A stretch of 64,000 nucleotides of DNA from Candidatus Dadabacteria bacterium. GTDB taxonomy: Bacteria; Desulfobacterota_D; UBA1144; Nemesobacterales; CSP1-2. The notes beneath the pieces are model-generated. The model was not told the DNA's origin. It saw nothing but the letters and a program-made list of their open reading frames with translations, and did not search any database. Position 1 is the first letter of the stretch. The number at the start of each line of letters is the position of its first letter. The DNA lies in assembly GCA_963805855.1 (NCBI GenBank), contig CAWDVW010000007.1, forward strand, positions 352,001 through 416,000, given 5' to 3'. This document shows, piece after piece, positions 5,820 through 39,999 of this stretch. Made by a program: the position numbers and the translations under genes.

Positions 5820-5862
5820 TTGACATTGTTCGTATTTCCATTATTCTAAAACTATGGAATTA
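5820..5862 (+). promoter_or_regulatory. sigma70 promoter and probable ArsR operator of the ars operon
   Basis: TTGACA(5820)-16 nt-TATTCT(5842); inverted TTCCA...TGGAA overlapping the -10 and start codon. Confidence 0.55.
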
Positions 5863-6201
5863 CACGCCAGCAACGAAAACATAGCAAATTATGCAGATAT
5901 GCTATCGGCAATGGGCACGGAGGCACGGCTCAGGATTATGAGGCTTTTGCTTTCGGCTTATCCTGAAGGCGTGGTTGTCGGTGAGATTCAGGCGGCACTT
6001 GGAATTCCAGGATCGACCCTGTCGCATCACCTTGAAAGGTTAAAACGCGTCGATCTGATTAAGATCAGACGTGACAAACAATTCTTATGGTATTCGGCAA
6101 ATTCCAAGGCGCTGGAGGATTTGCTCTCTTTTCTTTTCGCCGAGTGCTGTTCTCGTAGTCGTGCCGTGAGACCTGAGACAATTGCATCGATTTGCAAATA
6201 G
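5854..6201 (+). CDS. arsR: ArsR/SmtB family repressor
   Basis: RLRIMRLL...STLSHHL..L; C-terminal FLFAECC; heads arsM-arsC. Confidence 0.9.
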   Translation: MELHASNENIANYADMLSAMGTEARLRIMRLLLSAYPEGVVVGEIQAALGIPGSTLSHHLERLKRVDLIKIRRDKQFLWYSANSKALEDLLSFLFAECCSRSRAVRPETIASICK

Positions 6202-6211
6202 GAGGTGTTTC

Positions 6212-7072
6212 ATGAGTTCCACTAATAGAGACGAAGTACCTGCGGGAGGCTCAGGAGTTGATGACAGTCTTAAGGAGACTGTGAGGAAAAAATATAGTAA
6301 ATTAGCGCAACAGATTGCTGGTGAGGGTAGTTCCTCATGTTGCGGAGGTTACGGAGGGCAAAAAAAGTTTGATTCCATTACGTCTACTTTATATCAATCT
6401 GATCAATCGGCTGGAATCCCAATCGAAGTTTTACTAATATCCCTTGGTTGCGGTAATCCGACTGCGCTTGCCGAGCTCAATCCGGACGAGATTGTGCTTG
6501 ATCTTGGGTCGGGCGGTGGAATAGATGTATTACTGTCAGCGAAGAGGGTAGGGCCGACTGGTAAGGTATTTGGAATTGATATGAGTGATGAGATGCTGGC
6601 ATTGGCTCGTGATAATCAAAGAAAATCTGGGATTGAAAACGTAGAGTTCCTGAAAGGCGAAATTGAAAATATTCCGCTTCCAGACGGTGTTGTCGACGTT
6701 ATCATCTCAAACTGTGTTATCAACCTCTCGGTAAACAAGGATCGCGCACTAAAAGAGGCCTTCCGTGTACTGAAACCAGGCGGTCGTCTTGCGGTATCAG
6801 ATATAGTATTCAGAGGGACAATGCCTGTTGAGATTCGAAGGAACGTAGAACTCTGGATAGGTTGCATTGCTGGTGCCCTCGAGGAAACCGAGTATAAACC
6901 CAAATTGGAGCGGGCTGGTTTCGTCGATATTAGTGTGGAGGCTACACGTATCTACAATGTCGAAGATGCGAGAGGTTTTCTCCAGGATTCAGGGGTAGAT
7001 TTAGATAACCTTGCGACACCCGTCGATGGAAAAATCATGAGTGCATTTGTACGCGCTAAGAAACATAGCTAG
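6212..7072 (+). CDS. arsM: Arsenite S-adenosylmethyltransferase
   Basis: SSCCG, SLGCGNP, VLDLGSGGGID, SNCVINL, WIGCIAGAL; GGAGG RBS at 6201 supports ATG 6212. Confidence 0.92.
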   Translation: MSSTNRDEVPAGGSGVDDSLKETVRKKYSKLAQQIAGEGSSSCCGGYGGQKKFDSITSTLYQSDQSAGIPIEVLLISLGCGNPTALAELNPDEIVLDLGSGGGIDVLLSAKRVGPTGKVFGIDMSDEMLALARDNQRKSGIENVEFLKGEIENIPLPDGVVDVIISNCVINLSVNKDRALKEAFRVLKPGGRLAVSDIVFRGTMPVEIRRNVELWIGCIAGALEETEYKPKLERAGFVDISVEATRIYNVEDARGFLQDSGVDLDNLATPVDGKIMSAFVRAKKHS

Positions 7073-7125
7073 GTGCCGGGGGACAACCGTTTAAACTATA
7101 GTAGTGTTTATTCGATAGGAAAAAT

Positions 7126-7563
7126 ATGGCCAAGAAAAAAGTACTGTTCGTATGTGTTCACAATAGTGCGCGTAGTCAATTGGCCGAAGAATTGCTCAGA
7201 GAAATTGCCGGAAATAGATTTGAGGCTGAAAGCGCAGGATTAGAACCTGGCGTACTGAATCCTTATGTTGCAGAAGTTTTAAAGGAAGAGGGAATAGATA
7301 TAACCGGCAAGAAAACTAAATCGGTATTTGACCTATTAAAAGCAGGAAGGCATTACACGTATGTTGTAACAGTATGTGATGAAACATCGGCAGAGGCATG
7401 TCCGGTATTCCCCTCATGTGAGGAACGATTTCACTGGAGTTTCCCCGACCCGTCAAAATTTGTCGGGACCGATGAGGAAAAAATTGAGCAAGTGAGGGAA
7501 ATCAAGAATCTAATCAAAGCGAACATAGAGGCGTGGATAAAGGGTAGGGATAGTGCTTCCTGA
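7126..7563 (+). CDS. arsC: Arsenate reductase, LMW-PTP (thioredoxin-coupled) type
   Basis: FVCVHNSARSQ P-loop, VTVCD...ACPVFP, HWSFPDP. Confidence 0.92.
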   Translation: MAKKKVLFVCVHNSARSQLAEELLREIAGNRFEAESAGLEPGVLNPYVAEVLKEEGIDITGKKTKSVFDLLKAGRHYTYVVTVCDETSAEACPVFPSCEERFHWSFPDPSKFVGTDEEKIEQVREIKNLIKANIEAWIKGRDSAS

Positions 7564-26432: not shown

Positions 26433-28610
26433 ATGAGCAAGTTGATAATAGCTTCAAACAGATTGCCCATAACGATTACTAAGAGAAAGGGGAAATTTAA
26501 GGTTCAATCAAGTACCGGCGGTCTGGTAACAGCATTAGGCGGATTAGAGGATTCTCAACGGCACGTATGGATAGGATGGCCGGGCATTTCTATGAGTCCT
26601 TCTAATCCCGAAGCAAACGATATAAAGGCCTTATTGGAACCCGAGGATTATCACCCGGTTTTTCTCTCCAGACACGACATTGATGATTATTATCACGGTT
26701 TTTGTAACGAAACGATTTGGCCTCTTTTTCACTACTTTGTCCAGTTTGCCGTGTATGATAAGGATTATTGGAAAGCCTATAAAAGGGTGAATGAGGCATT
26801 CTGTGATGAGATAATGGAGATAGCTGGGCCGGAGGACGTTATCTGGATACATGATTACCATCTTATGATTCTGCCTAAGCTCTTAAAGGAAAAGTTGCCA
26901 GGGGCAAAAATTGGATTCTTTTTGCATATACCGTTTCCGTCTTCCGAAATCTTCCGCTTGATTCCCTGGTGCAAGGATATCATAGAAGGCCTTCTCGGGG
27001 CTGACTTAATAGGGTTTCACACCTTTGATTACGTCAGGCATTTTCTAGAAAGCGTCCGACGTATATTGGGATACGAGCATGCGCTTGGTCAAATCACGGT
27101 GCATTCCCGTGCTGTAAAGGTTGATGCCTTTCCAATGGGGGTGGACTACGAAAAATTTTCAAGCGCCGTTCACAATCCGGATGTTCAAAAGAGAGTTAGA
27201 AGTCTGCGGCAGGAAATAGGCGAGGAGTTTAACATAATCCTATCGATTGATAGGCTTGATTATACGAAAGGAATTCCTCAAAGGCTGGAAGCATTCGATC
27301 TCTTTTTGAAACGAAACCCCGGCTACAAGGGCAAGGCGATATTAATATTGGTCGCAGTACCGTCCCGCACAGAGGTTAAGCGTTACAAAATATTAAAACA
27401 ACAGGTAGACAATCTCGTTGGAGATATAAATGGTCGACATGGCAAAATTGGCTGGATTCCTATTTGGTATTTGTATCGGTCATTCCGATTTAACGACCTC
27501 GCAGCCCTATACTCTATTTCCGATGTTATTTTTGTTACGCCCCTGAGGGATGGTATGAACTTAATTGCTAAGGAGTATGTTGCAACTAAAAATGATGGAA
27601 ATGGAGTACTCATACTGGGAGAAATGGCTGGAACGGCAAAGGAGTTAATCGAGGCCATTATCATAAATCCAAATGATGTAGAAGCAACAGCAGATTCTCT
27701 GAAAGTCGCATTAGAAATGCCTACTGACGAACGGGCTAGTCGAATGGAAACTATGAGACTCAGACTTAAGCGTTACGATGTCAGAAGGTGGGTAAGCGAT
27801 TTTATGGAAAAGCTCGATCATATCACGGATGTTCAGAAGCAGATGAAATCAAGAGTATTATCACCGGATTTTAGAAGGAAAATAACAGAAGGGTATTCAG
27901 AGGCTCAAAATCGCTTATTCTTGCTGGACTATGACGGCACATTGATGCCATTCAATGAAAACCCAGAAAGGGTAGAGCCAGACCATGATCTAGTTGAGAC
28001 ACTGACGTCTCTGGTTTCCAGGCAAAATAATCAATTGGTCGTTATTAGTGGTCGGGGCAGAAAAACCTTAGAGGGATGGGTTGATAAATTAACCGATGGC
28101 TTAGTCGCAGAACACGGGGTATGGATTAAGGACGAAGAGTGGAAAGCTATCGAAAACCTCTCGGATGAATGGAAGAAAGACATCAGGCCGATACTCGAAA
28201 CTTATGTCGATAGGACTCCGGGCTCATTTATTGAAGAGAAGGATTATTCTCTAGTCTGGCATTTTAGAAAAGTCGATCCGGCATTGGCCATGGTTAGGGT
28301 AGGGGAGTTAAAGGAAATTCTTTTACATATAACTGGAAGCTTTAATGTAGGGGTTCTCGAGGGTAACAAGGTGATTGAGATCAAGAATGCTGAGGTAAAT
28401 AAGGGTAGGGCGGCGCGGTATTGGCTTTCTAAGGCGAAATGGGATTTTATATTATCGATTGGCGATGATTCCACAGATGAAGATATCTTTGAGGCGCTCC
28501 CAGATTGGGCATATTCGATTAAAGTCGGCTTAGGCCCATCAAAGGCAAGATTTACTATCCCTTCCTTTATCGAAGTGAGAGAGCTACTAAAGGAATTGGC
28601 AGTCGTGTGA
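26433..28610 (+). CDS. otsAB: Bifunctional trehalose-6-phosphate synthase/phosphatase
   Basis: SNRLP, GGL, WIHDYHL, FFLHIPFP, DRLDYTKGI, DGMNL; HAD domain LDYDGTL, GDD.TDED. Confidence 0.95.
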   Translation: MSKLIIASNRLPITITKRKGKFKVQSSTGGLVTALGGLEDSQRHVWIGWPGISMSPSNPEANDIKALLEPEDYHPVFLSRHDIDDYYHGFCNETIWPLFHYFVQFAVYDKDYWKAYKRVNEAFCDEIMEIAGPEDVIWIHDYHLMILPKLLKEKLPGAKIGFFLHIPFPSSEIFRLIPWCKDIIEGLLGADLIGFHTFDYVRHFLESVRRILGYEHALGQITVHSRAVKVDAFPMGVDYEKFSSAVHNPDVQKRVRSLRQEIGEEFNIILSIDRLDYTKGIPQRLEAFDLFLKRNPGYKGKAILILVAVPSRTEVKRYKILKQQVDNLVGDINGRHGKIGWIPIWYLYRSFRFNDLAALYSISDVIFVTPLRDGMNLIAKEYVATKNDGNGVLILGEMAGTAKELIEAIIINPNDVEATADSLKVALEMPTDERASRMETMRLRLKRYDVRRWVSDFMEKLDHITDVQKQMKSRVLSPDFRRKITEGYSEAQNRLFLLDYDGTLMPFNENPERVEPDHDLVETLTSLVSRQNNQLVVISGRGRKTLEGWVDKLTDGLVAEHGVWIKDEEWKAIENLSDEWKKDIRPILETYVDRTPGSFIEEKDYSLVWHFRKVDPALAMVRVGELKEILLHITGSFNVGVLEGNKVIEIKNAEVNKGRAARYWLSKAKWDFILSIGDDSTDEDIFEALPDWAYSIKVGLGPSKARFTIPSFIEVRELLKELAVV

Positions 28611-28812: not shown

Positions 28813-30723
28813 ATGGATTTAATTAGAATGCTGGAAAAGACATTGAGTACATCTTCTAATTTAACTTGGAAGGGCTTGAAGGCTGTAAATGAATTTATGC
28901 CTGCTAAACCCTTTCAGCCAAACTGGGCACATGCACCGCTACCTAAATCACAAAAGAGAACTAAGCCCCCTCTTGGATTGCCTAGGGAAACCGATTCTCT
29001 TTGCCCGAAATGTGTGAGAGAATTGAGGGATGATATACAAGCAGACCGTATAAACTGGCAGGATGTGATAAAAACCAATCCAGGAATGATAACAGCTCGT
29101 ATCTACGAGGATGATGGAAAGGTTCTGATGGAAAAAACCTGCGAAAGACATGGACGATGTGAAGATTTAATCGCTATTGATAAAGACTTTTTCTTACATA
29201 TGGAATCACTATTTATGGGCGATGACATGCCAATTCCCGAAAATATGCTTCGCAACCATGGTGCTTCATCAATTAAATACAGCCGGGGAGCCTGCCTCAA
29301 TGTAGACCTCACAAATCGTTGTAACATGATGTGTAGGCCCTGCTACATGGACGCAAACCAGGTTGGATATGTACATGAACTTACAATTGACGACGTTAGA
29401 AAAATTTTGACAGACGCCGCAAATTTTAAACCAAGACGGCAGACAGCCGTAATGTTTGCGGGTGGCGAACCCACCATTTCGCCTATTTTTCTTGAGTCAT
29501 GCAAGATCGCAAGGGAACTCGGATTCTTTTCCGTCCAAGCCGCGACAAATGGTTTGAGATTTGCCCTTGAGCCGGGTTTTGCTGAAAAAGCAAAGGAGGC
29601 CGGCTTACGAATAGCTTATCTTCAGTTTGACGGCGTTAGTAATCAAGCGCATGCTCATAGAAAAATTGCTAACCTTTTCGATGTAAGGCAAAGAATTATA
29701 GAGAATTGCCGTAAAGCAGGAATAAATGTCATGATAGTTCCAACCATTGTTAACACGGTCAATAATGACCAGGTTGGACCGATACTCGATTTCGCAATCA
29801 ATAATGTTGGAACGATTGCGGGGATAGCCTTTCAGCCTGTGTCATTTACCGGGAGAGACGATGACATACCCGATGATCAGAGGAGAAGAGAGAGGTACAC
29901 GACTTCTCACCTGGCTCACGAGATTTCAAAATATACGGACGGAGTTATAGACCCGATGAGGGACTGGTTTCCCCTTTCGGCGCTTGCGCCATTTGCAGAT
30001 GCTGTAGACCTAACCAGGGGTATGGACGATTCCTGGGGCTCAATGAAATGTGGATGCCATCCAAACTGTGGTGCTGGTTTTGTTCTATTGGTTAATAAGC
30101 AAACCAAGGAAGTTGTTCCGGTGACAAAGATCATTAATTTCAAACAGTTGTTAAAAGACATGCTTGATATAGCAGATAATTATCGCGGTCCCAAGTGGGC
30201 AATGGCGCAAATGGGTCTATCTCTCATGAGGAACTACAAGCCTGATGAAGCTCCCAAGGGATTAGACTTCCGTAAGCTCGTAAATATCTTCCTTGAGCAA
30301 TCGGGCGCTAAAAACTTTGGATCGCCGACCAATCCTGAATTCGATTGGGGTATTATGTTTATTGCAGCGATGTGGTTTCAGGATGTATATAATTATGACT
30401 TCAGACGAACTGAAAGGTGTGTAATACCGTACGGAACTCAGATGGGAGAAATTTCCTTCTGTGCGTATAATACAGGAATCGGGTGGAGGTGGATTGTAGA
30501 AAAGGAATTCCAGAATGCAACAACAAAAGAGTGGTTTAAGGAAAAAGGAAGGCACCCAATCTATGCGAACCAGAAACCAATAGATCTTCCTGAATACGAA
30601 ACACCCGTTGACTTAAACGGGAATCCGGTACAATGGAAGGGAAGGTTGTCAAAGGTTAAATCGCCGGAATCCATAAATGGAAAAGACAAAGCAGTGGAAG
30701 AGGGTGTATCGGTTACTACATAA
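28813..30723 (+). CDS. tes: Tetraether synthase (Tes/GDGT-MAS, MJ0619)-like radical SAM enzyme
   Basis: T.SLCPKC..A.IYE.DGKV.M.KTC..HG, DLTNRCNMMCRPC, FAGGEPT, QAATNG, YLQFDG, FQPVSFTGR, HPNCG, M.FQD.YNYD..R..RC.I.Y, SFCAYN. Confidence 0.8.
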   Translation: MDLIRMLEKTLSTSSNLTWKGLKAVNEFMPAKPFQPNWAHAPLPKSQKRTKPPLGLPRETDSLCPKCVRELRDDIQADRINWQDVIKTNPGMITARIYEDDGKVLMEKTCERHGRCEDLIAIDKDFFLHMESLFMGDDMPIPENMLRNHGASSIKYSRGACLNVDLTNRCNMMCRPCYMDANQVGYVHELTIDDVRKILTDAANFKPRRQTAVMFAGGEPTISPIFLESCKIARELGFFSVQAATNGLRFALEPGFAEKAKEAGLRIAYLQFDGVSNQAHAHRKIANLFDVRQRIIENCRKAGINVMIVPTIVNTVNNDQVGPILDFAINNVGTIAGIAFQPVSFTGRDDDIPDDQRRRERYTTSHLAHEISKYTDGVIDPMRDWFPLSALAPFADAVDLTRGMDDSWGSMKCGCHPNCGAGFVLLVNKQTKEVVPVTKIINFKQLLKDMLDIADNYRGPKWAMAQMGLSLMRNYKPDEAPKGLDFRKLVNIFLEQSGAKNFGSPTNPEFDWGIMFIAAMWFQDVYNYDFRRTERCVIPYGTQMGEISFCAYNTGIGWRWIVEKEFQNATTKEWFKEKGRHPIYANQKPIDLPEYETPVDLNGNPVQWKGRLSKVKSPESINGKDKAVEEGVSVTT

Positions 30724-32938: not shown

Positions 32939-33169
32939 TCAATTATGTCTGCAACCACAACTTGCTGGAGTACATGAACATCCTGACGCCATAGATTCAG
33001 AGAGAGAATCAGATTCCCCGGATTGTACGCCGAAGGTCGAGAACAGTTTTTTCAAATTGGGGCTCTCACAATTATCACATGCGACGTCGTTATCGGAATT
33101 TAAGACCAATTTTTCAAATTTACTACCACATTCTCCGCAAAGGTATTCAAAAATGGGCAATTTTCTCAC
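32939..33169 (-). CDS. FmdB-family zinc ribbon protein
   Basis: PIFEY.C..CG..FE.L...C..C.S..L.KL.S.F. Confidence 0.85.
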   Translation of the reverse strand: MRKLPIFEYLCGECGSKFEKLVLNSDNDVACDNCESPNLKKLFSTFGVQSGESDSLSESMASGCSCTPASCGCRHN

Positions 33170-33273
33170 CTCCCAAGTTAAGTCGGGGAAAATAAAGTAT
33201 AAATTTTAAATGTAAGTAGTCAATAGAGGGTATATTATAACGTAATTGGGAGCACGCGAGCAGAGTTCTACTG

Positions 33274-33359
33274 GATATTTCGGGGACAGTCTTTCAGGTC
33301 CTAAATGGGTATTCAAAAAACCAGCAAAATTGTAGGGAACTCAGATCTGCGTTCCGTAT
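33274..33359. repeat. Degenerate MITE end followed by a GTAG REP
   Basis: gatatttcggggacagtctttcaggtcctaaatgggtattcaaaaaa matches the MITE right end; GTAGGGAACTCAGATCTGCGTTCCGTA at 33332. Confidence 0.6.
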
Positions 33360-33380
33360 ATTAATGTGAAATCAGTCCGG

Positions 33381-34136
33381 TTAAAAGCTCTTCCAGAAGT
33401 CAATTCCTGCAAGGTCGAGTACCTTCTGACCATATATGTTTAAGTAGAATAGACTGTTTGTCACCATCAGTATTCCAACGGCTACAAGTGTTCCTCCTAC
33501 TATGAACTTGTAGAAACCGTAGTGCCTCTTAATCCAGCCGAAAGCCCCGAGGGCCGTTGAGAGCGCGAGTCCCGTGATTATAAACGGTAAACCCAGTCCC
33601 ACGGAGTACACGAAGAGCAACGCCGCCCCTTTCCCTGCTGCTTCTGTCGTGCTGGCATATAGGAGGATCGATGCAAGTATCGGTCCAACGCAGGGTGTCC
33701 ATCCGAAACCAAACGCGAACCCCAGAAGAAAAGTGCCTATCAGACCGAGATTCCCGTGCGGCAAGTGAAATTTGCGTTCTCTGTAGAGTTGTGGAATTTT
33801 TATTATATCCATTGAGAATAAACCGAACAGTATTATCATTATTCCGGAAATTTTTAGCAGAAGTATTTTGTTTTGTCTTAGAAATACTCCCATATAGGAT
33901 GCGGAAGCGCCTAGTAATACAAATACTACTGAGAAACCGAGTACAAAAAAAATACTGGGGATCAGTATCTTCTTTATTCTATTCTCGGCGGAGCATTCGG
34001 TTAGTTCGTTAAACGATAATTTCGAAACAAGCGATATATAACCGGGAATAAGAGGTAGCACGCATGGAGATAGAAATGATACAACACCCGCGAGAAATGC
34101 AAAAATCCAACTGACCTCTCCAGCCGGAGCCGTCAA
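33381..34136 (-). CDS. ccdA: CcdA cytochrome c biogenesis/disulfide transporter
   Basis: SFLSPCVLPLIPGY, FGWTPCVGPIL. Confidence 0.9.
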   Translation of the reverse strand: MTAPAGEVSWIFAFLAGVVSFLSPCVLPLIPGYISLVSKLSFNELTECSAENRIKKILIPSIFFVLGFSVVFVLLGASASYMGVFLRQNKILLLKISGIMIILFGLFSMDIIKIPQLYRERKFHLPHGNLGLIGTFLLGFAFGFGWTPCVGPILASILLYASTTEAAGKGAALLFVYSVGLGLPFIITGLALSTALGAFGWIKRHYGFYKFIVGGTLVAVGILMVTNSLFYLNIYGQKVLDLAGIDFWKSF

Positions 34137-34699
34137 TCTGAAATCTCCTTTAGATATTTGATAAAGGTTTTTTCTCCCTCTTCGCCGAGGAACGGACCGT
34201 AGTTCTTTTTGCTGATCTTGCCGTCTTTATCGATAAAGAATGTTGCAGGGAGGGCAACAACTCCGTACGCATTCGACACCTCACCAGAGGGATCGTGTAG
34301 GATCATATACGTGATACCAAAAGCCTCTACAAATTTTTCTGCTAAGCCTTCCTCGTCCATGACGTCGATGCCGATAAAAACAACCCCTTTATCCTTGTAC
34401 TCCTTCCATGTATTCTCAAAAAACGGCATTTCCCTTCGACATGGGGTGCACCACGATGCCCAAAAGTTGAGGACCACCGGCTTTCCCTTGAAATCAGAAA
34501 AGGCTACTTTGCCTTTTCCATTGAGTGGGGGAAGAGCGAAGGTCTTAGCATCCTGCCTGTCACCGCTTGAAGTGGTCTTGGTTTCTCCCCTTTCGCATGA
34601 CCCGATCAGAATAAGAGCGCATAATGTGATCGACAGATATAGCGGATTTCTCATGAAAATCCCCCTTTTGGTTATAATAACTGATAAATACCGTGACAT
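34133..34699 (-). CDS. TlpA-family disulfide reductase lipoprotein (start probably ATG 34654)
   Basis: LNFWASWCTPC, ALPATFFID, lipobox LIGS-C. Confidence 0.88.
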   Translation of the reverse strand: MSRYLSVIITKRGIFMRNPLYLSITLCALILIGSCERGETKTTSSGDRQDAKTFALPPLNGKGKVAFSDFKGKPVVLNFWASWCTPCRREMPFFENTWKEYKDKGVVFIGIDVMDEEGLAEKFVEAFGITYMILHDPSGEVSNAYGVVALPATFFIDKDGKISKKNYGPFLGEEGEKTFIKYLKEISD

Positions 34700-34877
34700 T
34701 AAGTTTCCCCTTTGTTGGCAAAAATTGAGTAAACAATATAAGCTATAATTGCAGATGTTGGAAGTGCAACTAACCGAGCGAGGATAATTTCATACGCAAT
34801 TGTCCGTCTCACTCCGTGATCCATCACTCGCTACGTTTCCATATAAAAGCGGAATAAAAATAACTGAGTTTAATAAC

Positions 34878-35492
34878 TCATTCAACAGATTGTCGAATCT
34901 TTAGAAGGTGGTCGCTGGTTAAATCCTCAACGGTGTCTACGTCTCTTAGCATTTCTAAACACTCGGACTTAATGCCATTGTGTCGCAATCTTTTCATAGT
35001 CTGATCGAATACGAGATTTGTGCTCCAGTCGATCTCATGAAAAACCTCCGGGATCAATCTTCTCAATCCAAGAAGATAATACCCACCATCAAAGGAGGGA
35101 CCTACGACCGCCTCCGACACCTCGAGTTTTTCGAAGGCCTTTACGATCGTCTCTGTTGTGATTTGAGGGCAGTCCGTTCCAATGACGACTGCTTTTGCCG
35201 CTCCGAGTGAGAAGGCATGACTGAAGGCATTGGACATCCTTTCCCCAAGTGAATTCCCTTTCTGTGCCATGAATGATAAGCCATTAAATTTCAGCCAGCG
35301 CACGACATCGTTTGTTCTTTCAGGTGGGTCGAAGAATATAATCTTCCTATAGTCGGCCAATTTCGATAAGTTGTAGATGAGGCTTTCCGCCATCTTTCTG
35401 TATAGCAGAGCGGCATTTTCTGAACCTATATTTTCAGCGAGCCGAGTTTTTACCTTCCCGGGCTCTGGATACTTAACAAATATTAGGAGCAT
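34878..35492 (-). CDS. TIGR04282/DUF2064 family glycosyltransferase-like protein (arsenosugar-associated)
   Basis: IFVKYPEPGKVKTRLA, Q.G..LGERM..AF, VIGTDCP, GPS.DGGYYLLGL, IDWST, L.DVDT.ED. Confidence 0.85.
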   Translation of the reverse strand: MLLIFVKYPEPGKVKTRLAENIGSENAALLYRKMAESLIYNLSKLADYRKIIFFDPPERTNDVVRWLKFNGLSFMAQKGNSLGERMSNAFSHAFSLGAAKAVVIGTDCPQITTETIVKAFEKLEVSEAVVGPSFDGGYYLLGLRRLIPEVFHEIDWSTNLVFDQTMKRLRHNGIKSECLEMLRDVDTVEDLTSDHLLKIRQSVE

Positions 35493-35516
35493 AGGATTTA
35501 TGTGGCTTTACTTCTG

Positions 35517-38039
35517 CTAACAGCAGGTTCCTCCGTCTACGCAGCATCTATAATCCTCGTTCACCTCTCTCGTAGGATCGGTAATAATAAACATCCCTTC
35601 ATAGGGAGGTTTGGCGAGTTTTTCTGCCGTGTCCGTGCAGATCTCCACGGATTCATTCCGGGGGAACAGATGGCCTTCCTCGTCGGCGATGGCTTTTAGC
35701 GGTCCCAGGTAAATTGCGCTCTGACCGATGAAGACGCATCCTGCGCTCTTTTCGAATTTATAACCCCTCACCGTGATCGAATAAAACCGATGGTTTTCTA
35801 CTGTTTTCCAGTAAATCTTGTTCAGGAGCTGTAGCCCGTAGAACCCTGCCTGTTCCAGGTATGAAATAAACTGCTCCTCCGTTAAAGATCCCGCGATACA
35901 TTCGCCCCAGAGTTCGTCATTTGTCACGATATGTTCCGGGACCTCCCTTTCAGAGATAATATCGGAAAGGACAATTCTTCCGTGATTCTTAAGTATACGC
36001 CACATCTCGGAAAAGACGCGCTTCTTGTTGGGTGAGAGGTTGATCACACAATTGGATGTGATTAAATCTACCGTCTTGTTTACAACGGGTATTTCTTCCA
36101 GGAATCCTCTCCTGAATTCTACGACGTCATAACCGAGATTTTTTGCAACAGTCGGTTTACATTCGTTTGCGATTCCAAGCATCTGATCCGTCATATCGAC
36201 TCCGATTACCCTGCCGTTTTTCCCAACCTTCTTTGCGGCGATAAAGCAATCGATTCCGGCACCGGAGCCGAGATCGACCACGGTCTCGCCCGGCTTTACA
36301 TTCGCAATGCTGATCGGGCTTCCACAGCCGTAGAATCTCTCAATGACATCATTCGGTATATGGCTGATGTCTTCTCCGGGATAGCTTGTTGGGCAGCATA
36401 GCTCCTTCTGAGGCTCCTCGGCTGCCCTTCCGTAGAACTCTCTGACAACTTCGCGCGACTTGTCAATATCAAACGTCAACACACAGTTTGAGTGGGATAA
36501 TTCAATATTGAATTCCGAGATTCCTACTGCCCCGCCATTTCGAATCCCATTTCCATTCATCTCATTCATGCCGCACGAGACAGCGCCTTCGCCCATCGCC
36601 AAAAATACACGGGGTGCATCGAAACCCGATTTATTGTTATGTTCAATTGCCTTTTCTTCGGCAAGCTCTAACAGGGTCCGGACTATCATGTATTCATGAA
36701 GGTCGGAGTAGGGGTCGGCTCCGGCTAGATCCCTTTTGCCGAAAGTGGCTCTGTTGTAAAAATAGGAGTGCTCGATGTCGCCACCCCCGCATATGAATTT
36801 CAAAAAGCAGTTGCTGCACTTTGACCTGTTCTGGACGGTCGCGCCTCTGAACATCTCAAAAACCTTGCTCTCTTCCCATATCTTCTTAAGTGACGTTTCT
36901 TTTATACTTCCTGAGCTTAATTCCTTCGTATTCGCCAGCGCTGCAGAGGGATAAACCTCGCCGTCGGAATAGACGCAGAGGCTGTCCCAGCATGAATTGC
37001 TGAGATCAAACTTCGTGAACTTTCTTGTCCTCAGCTTTGCCCTTATGGTTTCAAAATTATCGACAGTAATGCCAAGCTCGTCCGCGGTTTTCTTAACCTC
37101 TTTCACCACCTCAATCAACTCATATGTGGGAACAACCAGGTTCCTGCCGCCATTCATTATCCTTCCTGTCTGGTGTACCCAGAGCAGGTGATGGTTATTT
37201 ACGCCAAGCCGGGCCAATAGCCTGGTGATATCGGGCACATCTTTGGCATTGTGGGAATTTACGACGGTGGTTACCGTTGGGCTGAGTCCGGCCTTAACGG
37301 CCGACTCGATTCCTTTCGTAATTTTCTCAAAGGTTCCTTCACCCCTGATTGGATCATTTGCATCGGCATTCGAGCCATCGAGGCTGATCTGTGGCTTTAC
37401 GCGACCTCTGCCTGCTTCCAATAGGAGATCAATGTTGTGTCTCTTATTAAAAGACATTCCGTTGGTCAATATTATTAGCTCGGAATATTCATCGCGCGTA
37501 ACATATTCGATCAGCTCGAAGATATCCTTTCTTATGAACGGCTCACCACCGGTAAAGTAAAACCTGAATACACCGAGCTCTCGGCCTTCATCTATTATGC
37601 GTGTTATGCTGTCTGTCGGTAGACCCTTATCTTCCCAGGGTCCGGAGCTTACCAGGCAATGGGCACACTGGAGGTTACAGGAGTTATTGGTGTGTATCCA
37701 AAGCTCGCTTAGCCGGTCGGCCTTCAAGTATTCACCCCGTCCCCTGTAAGGCGCCCTCACAAATGGGTTGAGAGATAAGATCTTTTCCCTCAAAGCATCC
37801 TTTACGAATGTATTGACGTGTACCCAAGCTTTGGTTGTGCTTAACCCGAATTCCTTCGCATATAGTTTTACGATGTCATTGAAATTTCTCTTACCGTCCA
37901 TGTAGCTGAAAATTCTGGCGCCACGGGAATCTGTGCCGATCCAGTTTGGTCCTTCAGGGTCGATCAGGACGTGAAGATCATTCAGATGAATATCTGAGTA
38001 GGGTGGGGCGTGCAGGATTGATTTTTCAGATAAATCCAT
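35517..38039 (-). CDS. Fusion of PqqD/RRE-like, radical SAM, SPASM and ArsM-like methyltransferase domains
   Basis: CNLQCAHC, FTGGEP; SPASM C..C.....CGGG; ELCCP, FYGCGSP, DLGSGAGIDC, SNCVINL, WGECIAG; C-term CC..CC. Confidence 0.85.
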   Translation of the reverse strand: MDLSEKSILHAPPYSDIHLNDLHVLIDPEGPNWIGTDSRGARIFSYMDGKRNFNDIVKLYAKEFGLSTTKAWVHVNTFVKDALREKILSLNPFVRAPYRGRGEYLKADRLSELWIHTNNSCNLQCAHCLVSSGPWEDKGLPTDSITRIIDEGRELGVFRFYFTGGEPFIRKDIFELIEYVTRDEYSELIILTNGMSFNKRHNIDLLLEAGRGRVKPQISLDGSNADANDPIRGEGTFEKITKGIESAVKAGLSPTVTTVVNSHNAKDVPDITRLLARLGVNNHHLLWVHQTGRIMNGGRNLVVPTYELIEVVKEVKKTADELGITVDNFETIRAKLRTRKFTKFDLSNSCWDSLCVYSDGEVYPSAALANTKELSSGSIKETSLKKIWEESKVFEMFRGATVQNRSKCSNCFLKFICGGGDIEHSYFYNRATFGKRDLAGADPYSDLHEYMIVRTLLELAEEKAIEHNNKSGFDAPRVFLAMGEGAVSCGMNEMNGNGIRNGGAVGISEFNIELSHSNCVLTFDIDKSREVVREFYGRAAEEPQKELCCPTSYPGEDISHIPNDVIERFYGCGSPISIANVKPGETVVDLGSGAGIDCFIAAKKVGKNGRVIGVDMTDQMLGIANECKPTVAKNLGYDVVEFRRGFLEEIPVVNKTVDLITSNCVINLSPNKKRVFSEMWRILKNHGRIVLSDIISEREVPEHIVTNDELWGECIAGSLTEEQFISYLEQAGFYGLQLLNKIYWKTVENHRFYSITVRGYKFEKSAGCVFIGQSAIYLGPLKAIADEEGHLFPRNESVEICTDTAEKLAKPPYEGMFIITDPTREVNEDYRCCVDGGTCC

Positions 38040-38332
38040 AATTGTTCCTCCGGTATTAATTGCGGTTTTCTGATCTGGTAAAAATTCTTGTATCGCCTCG
38101 TTTAAGCTTACTATAATCTGACCAGAATTTCACATAAGCGACAGTATGTCGCCTATTTTGGCGTATTTAGCCGCAAATAGGATGAGATTAAGATGAAAAA
38201 ATGAACACAAAGTTTCGCAGATTCTACTTAATAACAAAAAAACGCGGCCATTCTGCTTTCCTCCCCATGTCCCCGTTCGTACGGTGGGGGTGATTATTCA
38301 TTCCCAGCAAGTGTCACGAAAAGCCTTTTACT

Positions 38333-38480
38333 GCCATTGCGAGAGACTTGAAAAGCCTCGAAGCAATCTCCAACGGTATTGGCACGGCGTTAAAACTGAC
38401 GATGTCTGTACCAGTCTTTCTGTAGGGACTGATCCCCGATTAGTCCATGTATCAATGCCCGTTTGTGAAACGGGCGCTAC
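38333..38480. repeat. REP cluster
   Basis: gccattgcgagagacttgaaaagcctcgaagcaatctc; GTAGGGACTGAT..TTAGTCC and GCCCGTTT..AAACGGGCGCTAC hairpins. Confidence 0.6.
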
Positions 38481-38538
38481 TTTGGTTAATTAATAAGAAC
38501 GAAGCCTTGGGAGGATGTGGAGGGGAGGAAAAGGAATT

Positions 38539-39012
38539 TTACTGCTCTTTTTTGTCCTCTTCCAATACTATTACTTCCAGCTGTTGGGCCTCTATTTCAT
38601 TTTTCGACCTTCTATAAATACCGCCGACCACCATGAAGTCGTCTTCCTCGACAACCCACGACGTAGGTATCGAAACATCAATAAAGTTGCCGGCGCGATC
38701 GGTGAGTTTAAAAACAACTATCGGAACACCTTCGTCCGTTTTTGCTTCGTTAATGTCGTGCGCAACGCCTTCGACGGCTACTTGTGCGCCATCAAAGGCG
38801 AGGGGATTAATAAGTATCCTTTCTATTGTTGTTCTAATACCCGTGACCTGAGGCGCCAGGATTTCCTTTTTGCCGCCGCAGGCTGCGATTGAGAAGATAA
38901 CTAAAAGTGAGGGTAGTAATTGTTTTAGTAATTCATAAAGTCTATGATTATTAATGTTAGCTCCGTTAAGTATCGTAAGAAAGTTTTCTACTTCGATTAT
39001 ATAATTTTCCAC
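38539..39012 (-). CDS. Hypothetical lipoprotein, probable OB fold (start uncertain, probably downstream)
   Basis: Lipobox SIAA-C; NP..FDG..V.VEG, FKLTD, V.V.G.Y pattern. Confidence 0.55.
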   Translation of the reverse strand: MENYIIEVENFLTILNGANINNHRLYELLKQLLPSLLVIFSIAACGGKKEILAPQVTGIRTTIERILINPLAFDGAQVAVEGVAHDINEAKTDEGVPIVVFKLTDRAGNFIDVSIPTSWVVEEDDFMVVGGIYRRSKNEIEAQQLEVIVLEEDKKEQ

Positions 39013-39100
39013 TTGAGAGTCAATACCGAGGCAACGAATTAACTTTCAAATAGATTTTAATGTGAGGCAATAGTTACCGGATGAAAAAGTAAATGATCAT

Positions 39101-39130
39101 GGGATTGCTTCGCTAACGCTCGCAATGACG
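39101..39130. repeat. REP (GATTGCTTCG..CTCGCAATGAC), uninterrupted copy
   Basis: gggattgcttcgctaacgctcgcaatgacg. Confidence 0.75.
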
Positions 39131-39180
39131 AGAATATGAAGCTATTCGCAGTAACAGTAAAAAAATGTAATATTACAATC

Positions 39181-39999
39181 ATGGAAACCAATAATATGGA
39201 TTTATTTGAAGAAAGTGGCTTTGGGATTGCAAGGATAAGAATCAAAGAAAGCGATAGTAATTATAACTACATAATATGGTGCAGTGAAACGCTTGAGAGT
39301 GCTGTAATAGATCCGCTTAATGCGTATACAATACTCGACTTCATAAGGGGACGAGGCCTGACGGTTCGTTATATTATAAACACGCATGCTCATCCCGATC
39401 ATGTTGAAGGTAACAACGCGATACTAAAGGTTACCACTTCAAAAATTCTCATACATCCGAAGGGTACGGAATTCGTTGCACCCAGACACGAGACAATAGA
39501 AGAGAACAGTGTCATCAATATCGGGAAGCAACAAATAAATGTCATTTATACGCCGGGTCATTGTCCTGAGCATATTTCATTAATCTTGGGGAGCAATATT
39601 TTTGTCGGCGACACATTATTCTTATCCGGTTGCGGCACCACAAAATTCAGGGGGGATGTTGACGAGCTTTATGAAACTATTGCCTTTAAATTAAGGACCC
39701 TTCCGGATAATTTTAGGATTTTCTGTGGGCACAATTATGCTGAGAAAAACTTGCTGTTTGCCCTGAATATTGAGCCTGAAAACAGAGCAGCAAAGGCTAA
39801 GCTTGAAGAGGTGAGAAAGTTTTTTGACAAAGGCAAAGAACCTCCACCCACAACCATTGGAGAAGAAAAGCAATATAATCCATTTCTCAGGTTTGATGAG
39901 GCTTCCCTGATTACTGAAATAAAAAAAAGGAAACCTTCTCTTGAACAAGAGCCTGAAACAATATTTCGAGAGCTTCGAGAGATGCGGAATAATTGGTGA
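39181..39999 (+). CDS. gloB: Hydroxyacylglutathione hydrolase (glyoxalase II, MBL fold)
   Basis: NYNY, THAHPDH, TPGH, GDTLF..GCG, CGHNY, TIGEEK.YNPFLR. Confidence 0.85.
   Translation: METNNMDLFEESGFGIARIRIKESDSNYNYIIWCSETLESAVIDPLNAYTILDFIRGRGLTVRYIINTHAHPDHVEGNNAILKVTTSKILIHPKGTEFVAPRHETIEENSVINIGKQQINVIYTPGHCPEHISLILGSNIFVGDTLFLSGCGTTKFRGDVDELYETIAFKLRTLPDNFRIFCGHNYAEKNLLFALNIEPENRAAKAKLEEVRKFFDKGKEPPPTTIGEEKQYNPFLRFDEASLITEIKKRKPSLEQEPETIFRELREMRNNW

Follow-up and report, generated by a model that had tools for sequence, protein, structure and literature searches.

A PqqD-like, radical SAM and ArsM fusion protein at the position of ArsS in Dadabacteria and its probable role in carbon-arsenic chemistry

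The fusion protein and its family

The 64,000-nucleotide stretch of a Candidatus Dadabacteria genome analysed here (GenBank assembly GCA_963805855.1, contig CAWDVW010000007.1, positions 352,001 to 416,000; hereafter the window, counted from its first letter) carries on the reverse strand a gene for a protein of 840 amino acids (aa) (P0001, 35517..38039), in which a PqqD/RRE-like domain (RRE, RiPP recognition element; RiPP, a peptide made on ribosomes and modified after translation), a radical SAM (S-adenosylmethionine) core, a modified SPASM domain and an ArsM-type methyltransferase are fused. The reading frame is intact, with no internal stop, and a GGAGG sequence is located 7 nt before its ATG at 38039. 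All motifs quoted for this open reading frame (ORF) in a preliminary description of the DNA were recovered in the translation, i.e. CNLQCAHC (C121/C125/C128), YPS (363-365), CGGGD (417-421), LCCP (547-550), YGCG (570-573), SNCVIN (662-667), GECIAG (712-717) and the tail RCCVDGGTCC (831-840). The gene beginning 24 nt downstream of the fusion stop (P0002, 204 aa, 34878..35492, same strand) was correctly assigned to DUF2064/TIGR04282 (TIGR04282, 209.9 bits, cut-off 134, full model 1-189 of 189; DUF2064, 116 bits); its relative in the PDB is a structural genomics entry, 3cgx_A (E 7.4e-37). It is followed on this strand by genes for a ResA/TlpA-like thiol-disulfide oxidoreductase (34133..34699) and a CcdA/DsbD-type membrane thiol-disulfide transporter (33381..34136), the latter overlapping the TlpA stop by 4 nt.

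Six regions can be distinguished in the fusion protein. Residues 1-105 (37725..38039, reverse strand as for all regions) form the PqqD/RRE-like winged-helix domain, as supported by Pfam and by alignment of the structure model with CteB, and residues 106-340 (37020..37724) the radical SAM core with C121-x3-C125-x2-C128 and GGEP (164-167; Pfam, conservation). The SPASM-type domain with altered ligands (341-450, 36690..37019; Pfam, alignment of relatives) is connected through a linker containing C489 and C519 (451-525, 36465..36689; conservation, model) to the ArsM methyltransferase domain with C548/C549, C572, C664 and C714 (526-745, 35805..36464; PRK11873, PDB alignment). The ArsM C-terminal domain (C768, C801) and a flexible cysteine tail (C832, C833, C839, C840) make up the rest (746-840, 35520..35804). 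In Pfam, PqqD matched residues 23-87 (24.6 bits against a cut-off of 23.4), followed by Radical_SAM (118-274, 84 bits), SPASM (350-411, 34 bits) and the class I methyltransferase Methyltransf_31 (582-732, 103.7 bits). At E≤0.01 the PqqD model was matched by 24 of the 57 family members, with a best value of 5.4e-10, and the language-model neighbours of the N-terminal domain were PqqD clusters (score 0.90, taken as a lead only).

An AlphaFold2 model of the fusion, built on the 57 relatives, had a mean pLDDT (predicted local distance difference test) of 86.2 and a pTM (predicted template modelling score) of 0.82; pLDDT fell below 50 only at 489-507 and in the last 14 residues (827-840), which are predicted to be disordered. 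From residue 12 to 463 the model aligned with CteB, an RRE-bearing sactipeptide-type maturase (5wgg, Z 31.3), and it was also similar to anSMEcpe (4k36, Z 30.2 over 109-524), SuiB (5v1t, Z 26.9) and TigE (8vpo, Z 25.9). The fusion shares with these maturases the fold and domain order of residues 12-463; it differs from them in being only 15-19% identical, in the family-wide replacement of SPASM cysteines by S365 and D421 and in the fusion to ArsM. Residues 545-827 superimposed on the ArsM structure 6cx6_B (Z 29.2, 279 residues, 34% identity). All three parts, an RRE-like domain, a radical SAM/SPASM body of the maturase type and a complete ArsM with its C-terminal domain, are real, and the proposed RRE-like N-terminus and domain borders were borne out by the model, in which two predicted SAM-using catalytic centres are housed in one confident fold.

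The ArsM part was matched by the algal ArsM 4kw7_A over residues 555-809 (phmmer, E 6.2e-39). C572, C664 and C714 fall on C72, C174 and C224 of 4kw7/4fr0 (counted on the alignment), and C549 aligns with the N-terminal cysteine of the Chlamydomonas ArsM 5evj. We take the As(III)-binding cysteines of ArsM to be C44, C72, C174 and C224 in 4fr0 numbering, and the As-binding pattern attributed earlier to this domain holds. Among the best 25 of 102 NCBIfam matches to the fusion, the top rows were arsenite methyltransferase models (PRK11873, 238.2 bits over 528-745), followed by generic radical SAM/SPASM families (NirJ2, AhbD, MftC); no model for ArsL was among these 25. As no NCBIfam model reached its cut-off among the matches listed, the fusion is without a curated family. 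The ArsS model TIGR04167 gave 51.1 bits (300 required), and only over model positions 2-147, and DUF3641, the Cys/Sec-rich C-terminal domain of ArsS, had no Pfam match in the fusion at E≤0.01.

A word-indexed search returned 627 relatives. The best 120, examined in detail, are 694-900 aa long, mostly full-length (114 of 120 cover 99-100% of the query) and 51-92% identical to the fusion. According to their source names they come from Thermodesulfobacteriota, Dadabacteria, Scalindua and other Brocadiales, Latescibacterota, Zixibacteria, Nitrospirota, Omnitrophota, Elusimicrobiota and Acidobacteriota; all named hosts are metagenome-assembled genomes of mostly uncultured lineages, many of them from groundwater, sediment and marsh. 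Their annotations are generic (e.g., "methyltransferase domain-containing protein", "radical SAM protein with 4Fe4S-binding SPASM domain"), and our full-text literature searches, from whose scope subscription journals were largely excluded, found no paper describing a radical SAM/SPASM-ArsM fusion.

In an alignment of 130 relatives, C121, C125 and C128 are kept in all sequences and the As(III)-binding cysteines of the ArsM domain in 129-130; furthermore, G164, G165, E166 and P167 are invariant in the 57 members, and the RRE-like domain contains residues that are nearly invariant across phyla. The linker cysteines are conserved as well (C519 in 130/130, C489 in 128/130), and they belong to the radical SAM half, because stand-alone ArsMs (see below) begin only at about residue 526. 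The SPASM-type domain has a different pattern. The canonical SPASM motif consists of seven cysteines for two auxiliary clusters. C350, C355, C408, C411 and C417 are present in the window copy, whereas serine stands at the YPC position (S365) and aspartate at the CGGGC position (D421). The SPASM domain had been called atypical on account of these two replacements; they are indeed there, but they are no peculiarity of this copy, each being found in 128 of 130 relatives. The window copy also has S376 and S445 where 86 of the 130 carry cysteine, and about 17 of the 130 have lost the CxxCx5C triad of SPASM entirely.

Other combinations of these domains exist. An exhaustive search revealed a natural fusion of Radical_SAM and DUF3641 (ArsS) with ArsM (P0164, 630 aa). 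Like the window protein, P0164 has the radical SAM part first and ArsM last, i.e. two steps fused, and its ArsM half is 53% identical to that of the window; unlike the window protein, its radical half is of the known ArsS type. ArsM is followed by radical SAM and SPASM, in reversed order, in three representatives (P0157, P0167, P0175), and DUF2064 is fused to ArsM in P0228 and the fusion to GT2 in P0142. Long forms of the fusion of about 1000-1080 aa (seven representatives) have a C-terminal DUF5714, and one protein is an ArsM-DUF5714 without the radical SAM half (P0134, P0138, P0141, P0144, P0148, P0150, P0162 and P0207 together); the domain is similar to MbdU, a double selenoprotein that binds metal (111 bits in P0207).

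Exchange with ArsS

The distribution of the fusion, ArsS (TIGR04167) and TIGR04282 was determined in 120 genomes of the phylum to which the window belongs. The intact fusion was found in ten of them (nine of the window's family, and G030), with frameshifted pieces in an eleventh (G012), and ArsS in 77 (73 over cut-off); no genome out of the 120 had both. TIGR04282 is present in 87 genomes: in all 11 with the fusion, in 75 of the 77 with ArsS, and in one of the 32 with neither, there as a partial match at a contig end. In nine of the ten genomes with an intact fusion, TIGR04282 is the next gene on the same contig. The genome of the window, which is 93.8% complete and has a single copy of the fusion, contains no ArsS; the best match to the ArsS model (51 bits) is the fusion itself. 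In G012 both the fusion and the next TIGR04282 gene are present only as frame-shifted pieces (C126:98854-100834), perhaps because the copy is decaying or because the assembly is wrong here.

What stands at the corresponding place in the sister families was seen in ten ArsS-type loci (L070-L079). All ten have the order ArsM, a gene of 93-128 aa, a gene of 345-349 aa, DUF2064, TlpA and CcdA. The ArsM (301-356 aa) is 61-67% identical to residues 526-840 of the fusion, and the gene of 345-346 aa was ArsS in all five loci in which it was scanned (TIGR04167, 409.6-423.2 bits, cut-off 300). By the coordinates of the family search, ArsM, ArsS and TIGR04282 are adjacent in every one of the ten. The small gene of L071 (111 aa) encodes an AhpD-like TIGR04169 protein (163.4 bits, cut-off 120), and the DUF2064 gene there is TIGR04282 (197 bits). 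ArsR is close to ArsM in four of the ten loci (e.g., L071, L075, L076; L071 and L075 have the upstream arrangement of the L089 type), and in most of the ten a HAD hydrolase gene is located divergently upstream. In the window and its family relatives (L080-L083, L085, L086) the order is the fusion, TIGR04282, sometimes PiT or PstSCAB, TlpA and CcdA, with a HAD hydrolase and ArsR upstream of the fusion in several of them. A malic enzyme gene lies beyond CcdA, and a 75-80% identical one occupies the same place in nine of the ten ArsS-type loci. Because the gene order including TIGR04282, TlpA, CcdA and the malic enzyme is shared, the two types of locus are orthologous, and the PqqD-radical SAM-SPASM part fused to ArsM stands where the AhpD-like gene and ArsS stand.

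The ArsM of the fusion could also be traced as a separate protein. In 27 genomes of the phylum, of which only G003 is not from another family, it is a stand-alone ArsM that matches the fusion best; it is encoded by an ORF of 320-369 aa and is 57-75% identical to the fusion from residues 507-529 through 826-840, the terminal cysteine pair included; one further genome has it in two pieces. In a carefully built tree of ArsM domains (31 rows; a separate tree of 67 rows was a quick one only), six ArsS-linked stand-alone ArsMs form one clade with the fusion domains of the window's lineage (97/91), and the ArsS-linked ArsMs are nested among fusion ArsM domains of other phyla. Since they nest inside the fusion clade, the tree suggests that ArsS displaced the fused radical half in the sister families. 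In an approximately unbiased (AU) test, one clade of all fusion ArsM domains was not rejected (p 0.063, for a group named after the tree was seen), so that either ArsS or the fusion may be the ancestral state. Whichever the direction, one ArsM lineage works with either partner.

The genus g19 behaves differently. All 36 of its genomes (G032-G067) have ArsS and TIGR04282, but none has a match to the ArsM half of the fusion at E≤1e-20, and ArsS may work there without an ArsM of the fusion type or with a very different one.

Outside the phylum, eight of nine fusion genomes tested are without ArsS. In a second order, sampled around G120, only three of 81 genomes had the fusion, too few for a table of complementarity. 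Neighbours of the fusion elsewhere include ArsR, PiT/PstSCAB, TIGR04283 (234.8 bits), a fused TIGR04283-TIGR04282, a MerA-like flavoprotein and VTT/DedA. In the fetched flanks of 40 fusion loci (the window and L001-L039), a DUF2064/TIGR04282-83 gene was found in 20, PiT in 12 and PstB in four, and at least one accessory gene in 26. In one genome of the window's genus (G006) there is a second fusion copy, 73% identical, at L084, surrounded by genes for ArsR, a MerA-like flavoprotein, VTT/DedA, TIGR04283 (234.8 bits) and PstSCAB.

Proposed function and alternatives

To our knowledge, the ArsS and ArsL types are the only radical SAM enzymes that form carbon-arsenic bonds other than methyl-arsenic ones. 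According to published accounts, ArsS was characterised from Synechocystis sp. PCC 6803 (PMC8552651, PMC13598754), works with ArsM there (PMC8552651) and adds the 5'-deoxyadenosyl radical to a trivalent dimethylarsenical (DMAs(III)) in a redox-neutral reaction (PMC13598754). For the arsinothricin genes arsQML of Burkholderia gladioli (PMC8552651, PMC13598754, bioRxiv 10.1101/2024.02.01.577332), ArsL is described as an enzyme that holds As(III) on a C-terminal cysteine motif, RCCLKC, and releases a 3-amino-3-carboxypropyl (ACP) radical through non-canonical SAM cleavage (PMC13598754). The partnership of ArsM with a radical SAM enzyme forming carbon-arsenic bonds is known; the fusion would be another form of it, documented here by its direct exchange with ArsS within one locus.

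On the basis of its domains, its conserved ligands, its gene linkage and the fact that it replaces ArsS, we propose that the fusion is probably a bifunctional enzyme that methylates As(III) and then forms a further carbon-arsenic bond by radical chemistry in a pathway of the arsenosugar type. The natural fusions that combine these parts in other ways, the arsenic-type neighbours of many relatives and the grouping of the ArsS-linked ArsMs with the fusion domains of this lineage also speak for it. By analogy, it would quite likely do in one chain the job of ArsM and ArsS. As with that pair, an ArsM with the four As(III) cysteines is combined with a radical SAM enzyme at the same operon position ahead of TIGR04282, and the accessory families TIGR04282, TIGR04283 and ArsR recur among the fusion relatives; unlike that pair, the fusion is a single polypeptide, its radical half is of the RRE/SPASM maturase type, and it has neither DUF3641 nor an AhpD-like TIGR04169 partner. 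A likeness to ArsL and ArsM may also be seen, in that a radical SAM enzyme goes with ArsM and the cysteines expected to hold trivalent arsenic lie C-terminal to the radical SAM core. The arsinothricin ArsM model scored 199 bits with the ArsM half, including the C-terminal part, far below its cut-off of 500, and, unlike in arsQML, there is no arsQ-type permease near the fusion.

In the proposed mechanism, the C-terminal ArsM half would bind As(III) on C572, C664 and C714 (with C548/C549) and use SAM to turn it into a trivalent arsenical with one or two methyl groups. This arsenical would be passed through thiol ligands to the radical SAM half, the flexible CC..CC tail and C489/C519, which would lie near the radical site, being candidate carriers. 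There, the [4Fe-4S] cluster on C121/C125/C128 would cleave a second SAM reductively, and a carbon radical would add to As(III) to give the further carbon-arsenic bond. If ArsS is the model, the radical would be 5'-deoxyadenosyl and the product of the dimethylarsinoyl-adenosine type, which the TIGR04282 protein encoded 24 nt downstream would process. A redox-neutral addition would explain the decay of the auxiliary-cluster cysteines while those of the SAM cluster and the linker persist. The hand-over of the arsenical, the radical used and the product are all inferred here.

Several observations weigh against this proposal. The ArsM domain stays under the cut-off of the NCBIfam ArsM model (238.2 versus 263 bits for NF008823) and of the more specific ones (AsSugarArsM, 164.6 versus 400; arsinothricin ArsM, 199.3 versus 500). 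The ArsS-linked stand-alone ArsM of the phylum is likewise below the ArsM cut-off (253.2 bits), and the scores place the fusion domain in a divergent ArsM subgroup. The radical half has the architecture of peptide maturases, with a well-conserved RRE-like domain, and only 72 of its residues, around the cluster motif, can be aligned with a true ArsS of the phylum (33% identity); therefore non-orthologous displacement is indicated rather than divergence. Neither ArsR nor a phosphate transporter nor TIGR04283 adjoins the fusion in the window, and the best TIGR04283-like gene of this genome (178 bits, cut-off 182) is located about 135 kb away, beside recG. Fourteen of the 40 fusion loci, mostly from Vicinamibacterales and Nitrospirae, have no arsenic-type neighbour in the flanks covered; genes for MsrQ-like, FAD-oxidase, 2-oxoglutarate-oxygenase and Tes-like proteins are found there instead. 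One genome outside the phylum (G180; L090, L091) carries the fusion together with a true ArsS (440 bits), the two being 2.7 Mb apart, and exclusivity is therefore not absolute; this ArsS has no TIGR04282 or TIGR04283 neighbour, and the fusion adjoins one MsrQ-like gene and one for a Tes-like radical SAM protein. Finally, related genomes are not independent, and the table of 120 genomes therefore represents few evolutionary events.

The maturase descent and the highly conserved RRE-like domain in a family without a peptide gene lead to a tentative variant, to which we give clearly less weight: the radical half would be no plain copy of ArsS, and a flexible, cysteine-bearing segment of the protein itself would take the part of a built-in "peptide" and move arsenic from one active site to the other, possibly for a carbon-arsenic product other than dimethylarsinoyl-adenosine. 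The CC..CC tail (827-840) and the loop starting at C489 may be such segments, and a substrate-derived carbon radical of a lipid or sugar may be what is added to the methylated As(III). If so, this would be a third, mechanistically distinct route to carbon-arsenic bonds and a possible source of the arsenolipids of unknown biosynthesis.

Alternatively, the radical SAM/Fe-S half could merely aid ArsM in anoxic cells without making any new carbon-arsenic bond, e.g. by supplying electrons that re-reduce the ArsM disulfide cascade in place of the lost AhpD-like thiol protein. Indeed, the AhpD-like TIGR04169 gene was displaced along with ArsS, NCBIfam contains other ArsM/AhpD fusion families (e.g., NF041537), and the hosts are mostly uncultured bacteria, many known from groundwater, sediment and marsh metagenomes. 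However, it is the SAM-cleaving CX3CX2C and GGEP motifs that are invariant and the electron-transferring (auxiliary cluster) cysteines that vary; TIGR04282 would have no substrate without an ArsS-like activity, yet it is kept in all fusion genomes of the phylum; and the genome already has a canonical arsM for detoxification (see below). We regard such a helper role as unlikely.

Slightly less probable still is a RiPP-like enzyme, in which the RRE would bind a peptide, the radical SAM/SPASM part would cross-link it or change it in another way, and the methyltransferase would methylate a thiol or place arsenic on this peptide. The N-terminal half does have the full RRE, radical SAM and SPASM architecture of CteB, PqqD matches are found in many members, and the near-invariance of the N-terminal residues extends across phyla. 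To look for a precursor, as the preliminary description had proposed, 1729 small ORFs (15-90 codons, both strands, 1.5 kb to either side) from 46 fusion loci were clustered; no family-wide conserved small ORF emerged among them, a result that applies to precursors of at least 15 codons encoded within that distance. In this range, unlike for RRE-dependent maturases, no precursor gene was found near the fusion. The largest clusters came from eight loci of a single acidobacterial group; they resemble shadow frames of the neighbouring genes and were rejected as precursors. Furthermore, the canonical SPASM ligands are changed in nearly all relatives and the CxxCx5C triad is lost in some, and the fusion is complementary with ArsS and has ArsR and phosphate transporters as neighbours. 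Of the three products offered earlier for this locus, an arsenosugar, an arsenolipid and an arsenic-modified peptide, a route of the arsenosugar type is supported, while nothing beyond the RRE-like domain was found in favour of the peptide.

Least probable of all is an action of the module on antimony, selenium, tellurium or a thiol metabolite, with the arsenic label coming from homology only: the sub-threshold ArsM scores, the loci lacking arsenic-type neighbours and the related NCBIfam methyltransferase selenoprotein families of unknown substrate (e.g., NF047649) would fit it, but all four As(III)-ligand cysteines are conserved, ArsR is directly upstream in close relatives (L080, L082, L084), PiT or Pst transporters, which are arsenate routes, adjoin 16 of the 40 loci, and the module is interchangeable with ArsS.

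The fusion with its proposed radical carbon-arsenic chemistry is probably a previously undescribed way of making carbon-arsenic compounds. The exchange at the locus, the complementarity in the 120 genomes and the TIGR04282 neighbour support the earlier suggestion of a biosynthetic role for this ArsM copy, linked to chemistry of the ArsS/TIGR04282 type. If it is true, the family would be a third, unrelated radical SAM type for carbon-arsenic bonds, a peptide-maturase scaffold fused to a methyltransferase. Its members occur in many uncultured phyla from sediments, groundwater and soils, by source names also in anammox bacteria, and complex organoarsenicals would then be made in anoxic habitats by genes that are not counted in arsM/arsS marker surveys. 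The fusion and TIGR04282 form a compact two-gene target for the role of the "arsenosugar accessory" genes, and the exchange within the phylum is a natural experiment in which the same operon contains either enzyme.

Other genes of the window

A canonical arsR-arsM-arsC operon is located apart from the fusion on the forward strand (5854..7563). Its ArsM reaches 348.4 bits (cut-off 263), in agreement with the separate detoxifying arsM reported before. The genome has a third ArsM-like gene (37% identity) at another place (C5:80905-81504). The inverted repeats upstream of the fusion have nothing in common with those upstream of the canonical ars operon, and a common ArsR-type operator was rejected.

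Directly upstream of the fusion, an ORF of 157 aa with a lipoprotein-like N-terminus (38539-39012, reverse strand) is preceded by a promoter-like site matching 11 of 12 positions (39023-38996). Pfam and NCBIfam gave no match for it, and the related loci lack a counterpart. Sites resembling promoters or terminators are no commoner than in shuffled sequences, and within 33000-39300 there was no Rfam match at E≤1. In two salt-marsh metatranscriptome runs, three short contigs matched the 3' part of the fusion exactly, one of them spanning its junction with TIGR04282 (35475-35625); this is only a weak hint of expression, since RNA libraries can hold DNA and contigs cannot show transcription.

Another radical SAM protein, 636 aa long and of the tetraether-lipid-synthase (Tes) type (349.9 bits against a cut-off of 450), is encoded 4.8 kb from the fusion (28813-30723, forward strand). 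Seven acidobacterial loci (L005, L020, L022, L023, L031, L035, L039) have a 49% identical gene at a distance of 2-5 kb from the fusion, and L090 has a different Tes-type gene (310 bits); in L080-L086, the relatives from the window's own family, there is none. Two lineages may share this synteny by chance, or it may point to arsenic-lipid chemistry. A gene at 26433-28610 (forward strand, 725 aa), which its translation alone suggests to be a fused trehalose-6-phosphate synthase/phosphatase-like one, has syntenic counterparts in L078 and L086 (60-69% identity).

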